From Octopus vulgaris (taxonomy: Eukaryota), in NCBI GenBank assembly GCA_951406725.2, contig OX597825.1, positions 53,320,001 through 53,384,000 of the forward strand: DNA of 64,000 bases, in the 5' to 3' direction. Below the pieces are notes generated by a model. That model was not told the origin of the DNA. It did not search any database and was given only the letters and a program-made list of their open reading frames with translations. Position numbers and translations under genes: made by a program. Shown here piece after piece: positions 56,230 to 61,400 of the stretch. The first letter of the stretch is position 1; the number at the start of each line of letters is the position of its first letter.

Positions 56230-57335
56230 AAGCTCCTAGGACCTTCCTGATAATCCTTGCTGTCCCTAACCCTAAGAGACACACTTTCTGTAGGAGCTCT
56301 ACGGGGCAATCTATTAATCTCTCCCTCGGTCATTTGTCTATATCTTGATTTACTGATCTCAGATCATCAATTATTATAGGCACGACCTTTACTGTTCATA
56401 TACTCCAAATTTTTCGTATTTCAAATTTCAGGAGATTGTATTTTCTTTTTTTCTTCCTCTTTCTTTAAGATCTTGGAATCAAATACGGAGTTGGAATAAT
56501 GGTTCGACAAGTAAGCAACTTCGTTTGGCCTTATCATTGTAATATTTGGTGTAGTGTTTTCTAATTTTTTTGCCGTTTGAATTCGAAAGTCCTACAAAAT
56601 CTTACATTTCTCTGACTCTAGAAACCTTTCGACTCGCTCATTGTAACATGCGTTTCTAGCTTCAAATCCTCGTTTCTAGCACAGTTTCCAGGGTAAAACT
56701 TTTACAACCTGGTCGTTCCTCCATTTCTTCTATTCTTTCTGTACCAATTTGGAACATTCTGGCATAATGTGTGCCACTTTCTCGTTACAAGTTCCTCTAC
56801 ATCGTTCTCACATATTCTCTCCATATACATTTTTTCAAGTTCTTTGTTCCTAACTCTTGATCTTGTGCTGCTACAATTAGGCTCTCCGTTTCTTTTTTAA
56901 TTGTCTCATTTTTAACCAATTCCAGGATTTTGTTACTCATACGTATTCAGTGGGTCTCCAAAATTGGACACAGTGAGGTTTTTCTTCGATCTGTCTGACA
57001 TGCTCTCTTTGTATTTTATTCTTGTCTTTTTCCCCTATGATGCTCTTCATCACCTGTTCTTTCTTACCTATCTTTAGTAGTCTTTCTGTACTGCTCTGTA
57101 ACTATTCTTCTAGACTTTTTCTTTCCATCTGTGCAAATTATTCTACTGCTATTAAGCCACTTCCACCCTGGTCTCTCCTCAAGTACAGCTTTCGGATGTT
57201 GGACTCCAAAATCGTCAACACCTTCCTGGTGTTTCTGTCAAGTTTCTTTATTTCGTTTTTGGTCAAGTCTATTATTCCAATTCTATATCTGATAAAGGGT
57301 ACTAGTCTTGAATTTACTGCTTCAATGAGACTTTT
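56230..57335 (-). mobile_element. R4/Dong-clade RLE non-LTR element 3' portion, decayed
   Basis: IEAVNSRLVPFIRY..LDRNTRKVLT..KLYLRRDQGGSGL, KKETESLIVAAQDQ, IL*DFRIQT, LKFEIRKIW..VKVVPIII; flanked by (ATT)n. Confidence 0.8.
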
Positions 57336-57365
57336 GGATTTATTATTATTATTATTATTATTATG

Positions 57366-57494
<129 letters not shown>

Positions 57495-57509
57495 TATGGT
57501 TTTCTTTTA

Positions 57510-58152: not shown

Positions 58153-58311
58153 CATTATTATTATTATTATCATTATTATTCGCCAAGATAACATGGCAGT
58201 ACAGAAAAATAGGACGAATTCTGACATTGATTAGCTCCAAGAGGTCATAGCCTCTAGCTAGCTAACCCTCCGAACAGGGTAGGTCAGCCGCTTCCCCTTA
58301 ATGGTCTGGCA

Positions 58312-58354
58312 TCTACAGACTAGTTTCAGGGTATTTGCCCCTTGTCAATGTAGA
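58312..58354 (-). ncRNA. type I HHR, U3:A8 core (family G); second copy 60290-60332
   Basis: Minus TCTACA TTGACAA GGGGC-AAAT-ACCCT GAAAC TA GTC TGTAGA; copy 2 TCTACA TTGATAA GGAGC-AAAT-ACACT GAAAC TA ATC TGTAGA. Confidence 0.78.
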
Positions 58355-58379
58355 GTAACTGAACCCAGCAGGCGTCGCT

Positions 58380-60004
58380 TAATCTTTATTATAGGAACAA
58401 TGGCCCGAATTAAGAGGGGACATTACAATACAAGACATGAGGTACATATAATAAAAAAAATCAAAATGTATGGTATGACAATGAATTATTTGTAATGAAT
58501 TAAATGGAATGGCTTACGAGCTCACAGTTTCATTTACAATTACAATTATGTTATTCAGGACGTTCATCCGTCATGTACTCGATTAACTTCTCCTGCTCAA
58601 TAATACCTGGCAAACTGTCATACCGAATGTATTGCATTACGCCTACAGATGTATACACCTTTTCCAGCTTCATTACTGTCTCTCTTTCTACAATCGCCGC
58701 CTTCACTTGGTCGTCAGATAACTTCGGGTTCAGCTTCACTCTAATTAGACTTTTCGTATTTGTCAACTTCTTCTCAATTTCCTTGTCCTTCTTGTACAAT
58801 ATTATAGCTTTAAGATTTCTTCCTTTTGGTCTTCCTCCTTCCTTACATTTTGTCAGCTGTTCATCCACTCTTCTTATTCATTCTTCCGTTACCTGCCAAT
58901 CTGAATCTTCACTCACTTTCGTTTCTGTATCTTTCTCTTCATGCGTTCGATCATCTATCTCGTCGGTAGACTTCTTTTTAGCTTTTTTCTTATTTTGTGC
59001 TTTGGGTGGTGATTCCACCCGCGTTCTCTTTCTATCCTCTTTTTCTTCTGTTCTTTCCCTTTCTTTCTCCTTCTCGTCACCTCTTTCTACATTATCTGTA
59101 GTCACGATTTCTTCTTCCACATACGCCTTTTGTAACTCCTCTGTCAAAGCATCCAGTGTTATCGTTTTCTCTTGTACTTCTCTTAGCGGACACATATCCT
59201 TCATGTGGCCTCTAATTTTGCATTTGTAACACACTGGGGGTCTCCCCTCCACTACGACTCTGAGACGTGTCTCGTCGGGGAACACCAACTCCTCTGGGAT
59301 GTTATACAGGTCTGGCATGGTTATGTGAACCAAAGCCTGCACTGCATAACCCCACCACTTTACTTCTTTCAACTTTTCCACCTTCAGTATGTCGACACTC
59401 TCTTTGCAGTTGAATACTATTGCTGCTAAAATTCTTTCCATGTTCAGTTCCGGTGAAATTTTACTGATTCGTATTCTTCCTGCCCTTTTCCACAATAGCT
59501 ATGTAGTAACACCCATTTTTCAGTTTTCAATATTTTCGTGGCGTTCCTCTTCGCTTCATTTTCGTTTTTAAAATGAACAACTACTGTTGCGTATTTTCTA
59601 CCTCTATTGTAGAAGGTAGTTTCTTCTTCAATTTCTTGTAGACACCTCTCAATTTCCTCCACCCCTGCCGCTTCTTTTCTCTTCGAAGCCACGCTCCACG
59701 TTCTGTATGTTATAATACGCTTCTCTGCTTCTTTCGCTTCGTCTTCAGGTGATGTGACCCTCAGGCAATCACCTTCCTTCTTGAAGCTGTTGAAGTATTT
59801 CTTCAAAATCTCCTTCTCGACGTCCTCTTCTTCCAACTGCAGTTCGCTCGCAGCCAGGCCCTTGCCTGCTGCTCCCGCATAAGTTTGGGCTTGCATACCC
59901 AACAAAAACTTCAACAGTTCACCACGCCGTAACAGCTTCCACCAACGAATTCGAACTCGCAATCGCAATATACAATAACCGTAACACAAAATAACCGACA
60001 CAAA
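58380..60004 (-). mobile_element. ORF1-only (HAL1-like) non-autonomous L1/Tx1-type retroelement with 18-bp TSD
   Basis: AACCCAGCAGGCGTCGCT at 58362-58379 and 60005-60022; AATAAA 5 nt from the 3' end; one gag-like ORF and no room for ORF2. Confidence 0.8.
58551..59896 (-). pseudogene. L1/Tx1 ORF1p-like protein (about 448 codons; zinc knuckle); one frameshift near 59490 and one in-frame TGA at 58878-58880
   Basis: MQAQTYAGAA..YATVVVHFKNENEAK (RRM-like)..VEGRPPVCYKCKIRGHMKDMC (CX2CX4HX4C), charged linker, C-terminal domain in frame after the TGA. Confidence 0.78.
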
Positions 60005-60899
60005 AACCCAGCAGGCGTCGCTACTGACCGTCTTTTCGAAGGATTATTTACCTAAAATTCAGTGGAATACATCCACTGGTTTTCAAAAATAGAAATATTA
60101 ATATTTTCAAGTGTCTCTAAAGGAGACTATGCCAGCGGTGCTGGATATTAATAGTTATCGACAAGCTAACATGGCAGTCCAAAAAGTTGCAAGAGGACAT
60201 CGCCTCTAGTTTGCTATGTGACACACGACCCTGTGTCCATTATAACCTTCGAACAGGGGAGGTCAGCCGCTTCCCCTTGTGATCTGGCATCTACAGATTA
60301 GTTTCAGTGTATTTGCTCCTTATCAATGTAGAGTAACCGAACACAGCAGGCGTCGCTACTGACCGTCTGTTCGAAGAATTATTTACCTAAATTCAGTTGA
60401 ATACATCCACTGGTTTTCGTCCTATTTTTCTGAACTGCCATGTTAGCTTGGCGATAACTATTGATATCCAGTATCACTGCCGTAATCTCCTTTAGAAAGA
60501 CTTAGAAATATTAATATTTCTATTTCTGTGTGTTTGCATATATCATCTGTAAAATATAATTAAGTATCAGGTAGATTGGCAAGGGACATTAAACATTATT
60601 AACTGGAGTAGGTTGGTGGAGTGGCTTTTGTTAAGTACATATTATGCAAATGGTATAAATTACAAAAAAAGAATGGTATATTATATACTAAGGGAAGATA
60701 TAATATATATTAATATCAAGTGAGGTGTAGGGAGATTTTGAGAAAATGTTAGTCCAATATTATGTAGGTCAAGTAATTATTAGAGGAGAGAGTTAAATAA
60801 TAAATATATATCAATATAATGTAAGATAATGTGATGTGCAGAGTATGTGACGATTAATAATCGAATTCCATAGAAAGGGTTAATATATACAGATATTTA

Positions 60900-61400
60900 A
60901 AAGAAGATAAGTATATTAGAAAAAAATGGAAATGTTATTAAAATTTCAAATAAGGGGTATTGTTTAAGATTAATAAAAAGGTATTTGGTCATGTATTTAC
61001 CTGAAAAAAACTTTTTCATACCTAGTATTAACAAGATGTCCATTCATTCTCATTATATTGTAGCTTTCTTCTAAACATAACCTACAAATTTTGTTATTAT
61101 ATCTGAAAGATGGGGCTGAACATAAGATTTTCCAAGATGTTGAGTATTCAATATTGTTTCTTTTGAGTTGGCTAACATTTTTAGATAGCGCTGTACTGTT
61201 TTTTGTAGGGTCATTAATGGAATATCTATGATTATTTATTCGTGATTTTATAGAAGTTTTCTTTACCTTATACTTAATATTCACAAACGAATATTAGTTC
61301 TTACACAAACACAACACCATTTTATGTAGCTCTTTAAGCATTTCTACCCCTAACTCGTTTACATTGCAACCTCCTATATACTAAATTCACTAGTTTGATT
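60900..61400 (-). mobile_element. PLE GIY-YIG C-terminal fragment (Naiad-like)
   Basis: SIKSRINNHRYS..STALSKNVSQLK..SWKIL..CRLCLEE..LVNTRYE. Confidence 0.75.

Follow-up and report, generated by a model that had tools for sequence, protein, structure and literature searches.

The window analysed here, a 64,000-nucleotide stretch of the Octopus vulgaris genome, contains on its minus strand a 1625-nt insert, which is in all likelihood a decayed copy of an old half-LINE family moved by helper-driven target-primed reverse transcription (TPRT), mostly into one fixed position of ~340-bp repeats that carry a hammerhead motif. The preliminary description of this DNA had reported an exact 18-bp duplication around the insert, and identical 18-mers (58362-58379 and 60005-60022) were indeed found at both of its edges. 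The parts of the element, in coordinates of the window, are as follows.

58380..60004, minus strand: copy interpreted as an ORF1-only, non-autonomous LINE without a poly(A) tail (1625 nt; ends as in the family copies)
60005..60022, minus strand: target-site duplication on the 5' side of the element (exact match)
58362..58379, minus strand: target-site duplication on the 3' side of the element (exact match)
59897..60004, minus strand: T-rich 5' leader, 108 nt
58551..59896, minus strand: ORF1, broken in the window copy (frameshift near 59490, stop at 58878-58880)
58380..58550, minus strand: 3' UTR, 171 nt, with a terminal short hairpin-like motif and a poly(A)-signal hexamer (58385-58390)

When both strands of the window were searched with up to four mismatches, one further match to the 18-mer was detected at 60340-60357, where it is uninterrupted and carries one mismatch; this is the intact target that had been proposed for the adjacent tandem unit. 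On the minus strand, the ATG of ORF1 is located at 59896 and its final stop at 58551-58553, and the insert, which lacks a poly(A) tail, terminates 5 nt past the poly(A)-signal hexamer. The short leader, the ~170-nt 3' UTR and the AATAAA signal described earlier agree with these measurements, and the layout of the 3' UTR resembles the ends of autonomous relatives. As had also been stated, no endonuclease or reverse transcriptase (RT) frame was present among the open reading frames of the insert. The ~448-codon ORF1 of that description holds for the sister copies L018 (450 aa) and L008 (463 aa), in which the frame is open, while in the window copy it is interrupted by the frameshift and the stop listed above. 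The distance from the duplication to stem I of the hammerhead, given as 8 nt, needs a small correction: 7 nt intervene, and the stem begins at the eighth base. Elsewhere in the window, a short decayed frame at 57138-57506 (minus strand) looks by eye like the C-terminal part of the RT of an unrelated LINE (L139).

The host of the insert is a 330-360-bp non-coding unit, which occurs singly, in tandem or with inverted tails, and which is represented in the window by the following parts.

58312..58354, minus strand: hammerhead motif (type I, U3-A8 variant of the core) in the host unit that the insert interrupts (from sequence and covariation)
58168..58379, minus strand: portion of this ~340-bp host repeat downstream of the insert, ending in a triplet microsatellite
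60005..60084, minus strand: portion of the same host unit upstream of the insert, containing a TATA-like motif at 60044-60050 and an initiator-like pentamer at 60023-60027
60084..60430, minus strand: uninterrupted tandem host unit, with the empty target at 60340-60357 and a hammerhead motif at 60290-60332
60427..60528, plus strand: partial host unit in inverted orientation (85%), resembling a Penelope-type 'tail'

The hammerhead fold follows the insert on the same strand (58354-58312), with a 6-bp stem I and a predicted cut between 58318 and 58317. Rfam gave no hammerhead match for the window, for the region around the insert or for 12 host loci. Positions 3 and 8, which the search pattern left free, are C-G or U-A in 155 of 176 cores, and two-sided changes were found in all 12 consensus pairs among 26 sequences chosen for diversity. 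The assignment of the host motif to the type I hammerheads, with a conserved core and stems I and II, is supported by these comparisons. Single-sequence folding of the ribozyme region of the window was no better than that of shuffled sequences (z -0.27), and z values of -2.2 to -3.5 were obtained for three other copies. Hosts have diverged into at least four types in use, of which the window host is H2; a short palindrome just upstream of the TATA-like box (60060-60080) is kept in the diverged hosts H1 and H3.

With its short, tandemly arranged units, which are non-coding and carry a type I hammerhead each, the host resembles non-LTR retrozymes. According to the accessible parts of the literature, these retrozymes and the minimal hammerheads of Penelope-like element (PLE) pLTRs share with it a type I hammerhead with a C3-G8 or U3-A8 core, small non-coding tandem units and inverted tails (PMC7229834, PMC4209133, bioRxiv 10.64898/2026.07.22.740005); the U3-A8 variant has been described in the part consulted of PMC4209133, and the inverted 'tail' is known from Penelope-type insertions (PMC11167929). 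Unlike PLE pLTRs as covered there, the octopus host units are known from sequence alone and have no observed link to a Penelope ORF. A fragment of an old Penelope-like GIY-YIG endonuclease family is located at 60997-61293 (minus strand); the idea that the host is the pLTR of this fragment found no support, as none of 24 fragment relatives adjoins a host unit. The long-ORF Penelope family that we found (L288:1496-4578, plus strand, a 955-codon open frame) carries its own, different hammerhead motif.

For the insertion sites, every exact match of a 25-nt pattern for the 3' end was taken regardless of flank (66 matches; control 0); the window copy differs from the pattern and is excluded. A strict hammerhead core lies within 75 nt of 36 of these 3' ends, against a background of 22 in 1706 window tiles, and 12 further ends were placed by eye at the host target, with a degenerate core or in the next array unit (48/66). 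The other 18 are at unrelated sites. The flanks thus recur at the same position of ribozyme repeats, as the proposed tabulation was expected to reveal, and 36/66 exceeds the share of more than 20% of flanks used to define a target in the accessible part of PMC4494074. Of the proposal that a ribozyme-bearing repeat is targeted, the recurrent position stands and the single target family does not, as several diverged hosts and ribozyme-free sites are used. Most hosts are empty, since the window host pattern has 263 exact sites and the hexamer-preceded (filled) pattern 11, one of them empty. The junction is situated at the base of a long hairpin enclosing the ribozyme, and no snRNA was found at 20 off-target loci. 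A second insertion register was observed at L232, L236, L089 and L230, where the 18-21-bp duplication stops at the ribozyme core, and a let-7 precursor (L152:1461-1539) lies ~3.5 kb from a truncated off-target copy.

In hosts H1, H3, H4 and H5, copies were seen by eye to have a strict TATA match at a distance of 24-36 nt ahead of the duplication. In the window host, a near match only (60044-60050) stands 28 nt before the duplication and a pentamer (60023-60027) lies at the junction, motifs which we take to be TATA-like and initiator-like; the second register is 41 nt from the TATA-like box. Of the 7 flank classes of ribozyme-free full-length copies, 4 (L010, L104, L111, L127) also have a strict TATA match, at -26 to -32, and none of 7 truncated off-target copies has one, in a spacing tally made by eye without background control. 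These positions suggest that the junction may be the transcription start of the host repeat, and because the TATA-like box at 24-36 nt recurs at ribozyme-free sites, the ribozyme may be a bystander and not itself the target. That the promoter or start region sets the site has a chance approaching even in our judgement, while choice by the ribozyme itself is improbable, less likely than a promoter or a sequence cue.

Such a sequence cue, in which a loose preference of the helper endonuclease and target-derived bases at the RNA 3' end would set the site and the TATA box would be just a conserved part of the host, is a serious contender that we hold at somewhat under even. The targets in H1, H2 and H3 have a short degenerate motif in common, registers vary by 8-13 nt between families, and the off-target copies L010, L137, L138, L140 and L154 begin with the 3-5 bases that their subfamily has on target; endonuclease specificity is, moreover, the stated norm for Tx1 in the part consulted of PMC4494074. 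Against this cue, ribozyme-free targets of unrelated sequence have a strict TATA match in 4 of the 7 full-length classes and in none of the 7 truncated copies of the by-eye tally.

The insertions are largely independent of one another, since hosts are switched inside tight element clades: among 39 full-length units, the window copy sits in H2 yet groups with copies in H1, and one tight clade spans H1 and H3 hosts. A passenger model, in which a few ancient insertions were amplified with the ribozyme repeat and the apparent targeting is hitch-hiking, is already contradicted by this as the main cause and is quite unlikely; duplication lengths and 5' extras also vary, a 114-nt truncated copy (L135) has its own 17-bp duplication at the ribozyme site, several unrelated autonomous and ORF1-only families are found at one site, and arrays occur. 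Some copies have evidently spread as passengers, so that the 36 ribozyme-site ends are not all independent: host and element are shared at 95% over 1.5 kb between L083 and L146, and 13 of the 36 ribozyme-site copies, mostly truncated ones, yielded no duplication. The 5' junctions shared by L008, L012 and L013 fit the same model. It is very unlikely that element and ribozyme form one protein-coding retrozyme driven by Penelope machinery, as might be supposed from their common strand and the Penelope-like inverted tails of the host, because the duplication encloses the ORF1 unit and leaves the ribozyme outside, most hosts are empty, 18 of the 66 ends are at unrelated sites, and ORF1 is homologous to the ORF1 of APE-RT LINEs.

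In a DNA search of the O. vulgaris genome (2.8 Gb), in which 40 of 283 candidates were scored, 51 match rows were obtained. Both element ends are covered by 25 of these, the window copy counted, with starts at nt 26 or earlier and stops at nt 1622 or later, and the others among the 25 are 69-91% identical to the window copy. With duplications of ~13-19 bp of their own, these are the many ~1.6-kb copies with the same two ends that had been predicted. The ORF1 protein search of the genome gave 150 scored places, with many head-to-tail arrays at ~1.8-kb spacing. In the fetched loci, an ORF2 start within 1.6 kb behind ORF1 was found in 0 of 81 matches at 60% identity or more, in 0 of 3 at 45-60% and in 43 of 61 below 45%, and no RT of the same lineage was detected upstream of 66 3' ends in the 2.1-5 kb examined. 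The RT upstream of L139 was rejected as the family RT, as it belongs to an unrelated LINE. Fixed ends and the lack of ORF2 in the 81 close ORF1 copies bear out the earlier proposal that the element transposes as an ORF1-only unit. The insert is almost certainly an ORF1-only LINE, belonging to a multi-copy unit with fixed ends, an ORF1 homologous to that of autonomous LINEs and signatures of TPRT.

A young subfamily (L068-L073, L081, L082, L112-L119, L123) possesses the same ORF1 with a family-B-like 3' end, suggesting 3'-end swapping between helpers; it forms arrays of up to 7 units ahead of the 5' ends of other elements, and a second, separate ORF1-only lineage is present within the same arrays. 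Another group of copies (L009, L016, L021-L023) is mosaic, with 5' and 3' halves that cluster with different subfamilies.

The RRM-like/CCHC character attributed to ORF1 was confirmed by prediction. An AlphaFold model of the intact sister ORF1, built with a 70-sequence alignment (mean pLDDT 79), has the predicted order RRM-RRM-CCHC, long helix, disordered linker and C-terminal alpha/beta domain. Its two RRM-type folds matched nucleolin best (Z 8.9, rmsd 2.5 over 78 residues), followed by La (8.7), and a CCHC knuckle is present; Pfam returned a weak zf-CCHC alone, and L1ORF1p was absent among the structural matches listed for the whole model. A word-index protein search returned no homologue, and a HMMER protein search returned 393. 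ORFs of this kind are annotated as uncharacterised octopus genes, and the species represented among the named homologues are Octopus bimaculoides, O. sinensis and O. vulgaris, together with Argonauta. ORF1 is ~28-36% identical to ORF1s that precede an APE-RT ORF2. A FastTree phylogeny (midpoint root, local support, no clade test) separates all ORF2-bearing families, with a support of 0.975, from the half-LINE family, which stands together with further ORF1-only loci and three O. bimaculoides proteins.

ORF1 is under purifying selection: when 18 open-frame copies were compared, the 113 pairs with dS of at least 0.15 had bin medians of dN/dS between 0.10 and 0.25, the two closest pairs had a median of 0.52, and 38 of 153 pairs were saturated. 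The tree split, the selection on ORF1 and the lack of ORF2 in close relatives make the lineage look old rather than freshly deleted. That the insert arose once, by deletion from a full LINE or by its premature 3'-end formation, as the poly(A)-signal hexamer just after ORF1 in autonomous family A might suggest, has practically no chance, since there are dozens of fixed-end copies, ORF1 has been selected over the long term and the 81 close ORF1 relatives have no ORF2.

Marks of retrotransposition are found both on and off the ribozyme site. The ~13-19-bp duplications flank full-length and 5'-truncated copies, also at unrelated sites, and a scripted search detected them at 23 of the 36 ribozyme sites and at 16 of the remaining 30. 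Inversions of the 5' part occur at five loci (L015, L132, L143, L147, L149), and head-to-tail arrays carry a duplication between their units. Sense-strand-specific A-to-G hypermutation was observed in unit 1 of L073 (C4, near 97.909 Mb), unit 1 of L076 and L127: A>G accounts for 176 of 184 differences between two L073 units, 140 of 198 at L076 and 180 of 278 at L127, versus 0/9 and 17/110 in controls. ADAR is known for A-to-I editing, and these genomic copies likely point to an RNA intermediate that was edited by ADAR and then retrotransposed. No report of such hypermutated retrotransposed copies was found in a literature search.

A distant ORF1 query led to LINEs with ORF1 and an intact 1132-1138-aa ORF2 (families A and B), in which Exo_endo_phos (APE), RVT_1 (RT) and zf-RVT domains were identified. 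Family A (L198-L205, with several intact ORF2) is situated in (TC)n microsatellites, like Kibi, and family B in arrays, both without a poly(A) tail. A genome pattern combining the hexamer with the ribozyme gave 205 sites (control 5), and 20 of them, a by-eye diversity pick from 100 listed, were examined: an ORF2 C-terminus lies directly upstream at 10 (families C-F), 7 are ORF1-only, 2 have a similar tail without an ORF match, and 1 is apparently empty. Family C matches the ORF1-only copies L021 and L022 in its junction, in a duplication of ~14 nt and in a T-rich 5' start, and family E inserts ~8 nt farther downstream than the junction of the window copy. At that exact junction in H2, no autonomous element was seen among the sampled sites. 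The autonomous copies examined at ribozyme sites align in several pieces, none of these copies being demonstrably intact; their ORF2s have roughly 50-68% alignment identity with that of family A, and their ORF1s are ~30% identical and not the sister group of the ORF1-only family.

These autonomous APE-RT LINEs are the likely helpers. The preliminary description had called for an autonomous Tx1/L1 element with a shared 3' tail; APE-RT elements with a similar end do occur at the same sites, although the likeness is one of layout and terminal hexamer, with limited sequence identity. The helpers are best described as L1/Tx1-type, Tx1 being preferred over L1 on architecture, which is shared with L1, and on target specificity rather than on a reference tree; the best named match of the helper RT was a Ciona pol-like protein (26%), and no named Tx1 was returned. 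Mobilisation in trans by such helpers is highly probable, given the absence of ORF2 and the junctions shared with autonomous elements.

Under the proposed mechanism, the half-LINE would move by TPRT with the endonuclease and RT of autonomous L1/Tx1-type LINEs. It would likely be transcribed from the promoter of the host repeat, as a TATA-like box stands 24-36 nt upstream after insertion and L003 has at its 5' end an additional stretch that resembles the target of another host variant, as though transcription had begun in the flank of the donor. ORF1p would likely coat the RNA and recruit helper ORF2p via the common 3' end, and, a poly(A) tail being absent, reverse transcription would have to be primed through a few bases that match the target and lie at the 3' end of the RNA or beyond it. 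Read-through RNA might be cut by the predicted ribozyme downstream, ~65 nt beyond the element.

HAL1 in the strict sense is a mammalian L1 derivative with a poly(A) tail. The octopus family, with octopod named homologues and no poly(A) tail, lies outside this definition; the suggestion of a cephalopod HAL1-like family thus holds for an ORF1-only multi-copy family and, given its octopus L1/Tx1-type descent, as an analogy only. ORF1-encoding non-autonomous LINEs include HAL1 (from L1), HeT-A (Jockey) and Ag-Sponge (CR1) according to the accessible parts of PMC5753468 and PMC5786205. As described there, they are like the octopus family in having ORF1 only, a retained LINE 3' end, a conserved ORF1 and movement in trans, which is inferred in the octopus. 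The octopus family differs in its L1/Tx1-type origin, its lack of a poly(A) tail and its strong site specificity, and its ORF1 lineage is old and not sister to the candidate helpers.

Target-specific Tx1 elements, in the part consulted of PMC4494074, include Xenopus Tx1 in Tx1D, crocodilian Tx1-Mar and SINEU-3 in Mariner-N4_AMi, and Kibi in (TC)n. They too have a fixed site in a mobile repeat, ~15-bp duplications, tandem copies sandwiching the duplication and a non-autonomous partner with a common target, and octopus family A lies in (TC)n as Kibi does. Unlike in these systems, the octopus target is a hammerhead-bearing non-coding repeat, with several hosts and ribozyme-free sites, and the non-autonomous partner encodes ORF1. 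In Dictyostelium, according to the accessible part of PMC3159450, TRE5-A.2 is an ORF1-only derivative of TRE5-A.1 mobilised in trans; TRE5-A integrates ~50 bp upstream of tRNA genes, and binding of its ORF1p to subunits of TFIIIB has been observed in vitro. The Dictyostelium system shares with the octopus family an ORF1-only derivative and position-specific insertion, and offers a precedent for promoter-guided targeting, whereas TRE5-A.2 is an internal deletion of its helper and a protein tether in the octopus would be hypothetical.

By comparison with that precedent, we raise as a doubtful, speculative reading that an animal LINE lineage may integrate by position, at transcription starts behind TATA boxes, with ORF1p tethering to the promoter machinery. 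On this reading as a whole, ORF1 might be kept as an aiming device, retrozymes might serve as dispersed, harmless promoters, 3' ends might be swapped across helpers, the host ribozyme may trim RNA, and Penelope, retrozyme/LINE and half-LINE could form a three-tier parasite chain.

Both LINEs with ORF1 only and Tx1 elements that target other TEs have been described; their combination and this target were not found in the literature searched. Neither retrozymes as LINE targets nor half-LINEs of cephalopods turned up in that search, outside which lay Repbase Reports, repeat libraries and subscription journals, and in a 2026 Octopus vulgaris repeat paper, hammerhead, HAL1 and ORF1 are absent from the main text, and hammerhead and HAL1 from one supplement. 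With this finding, 'half-LINEs' that encode ORF1 only are known also from a target-specific lineage of L1/Tx1 type, and repeats with a ribozyme motif join the list of LINE targets. With many autonomous and ORF1-only families inserted at one site in differing registers, the octopus genome offers a natural series on LINE target choice, which also bears on why a non-autonomous element retains ORF1. If it is true that the cue is the promoter and not the sequence, the family would be an animal counterpart of TRE5-A targeting.
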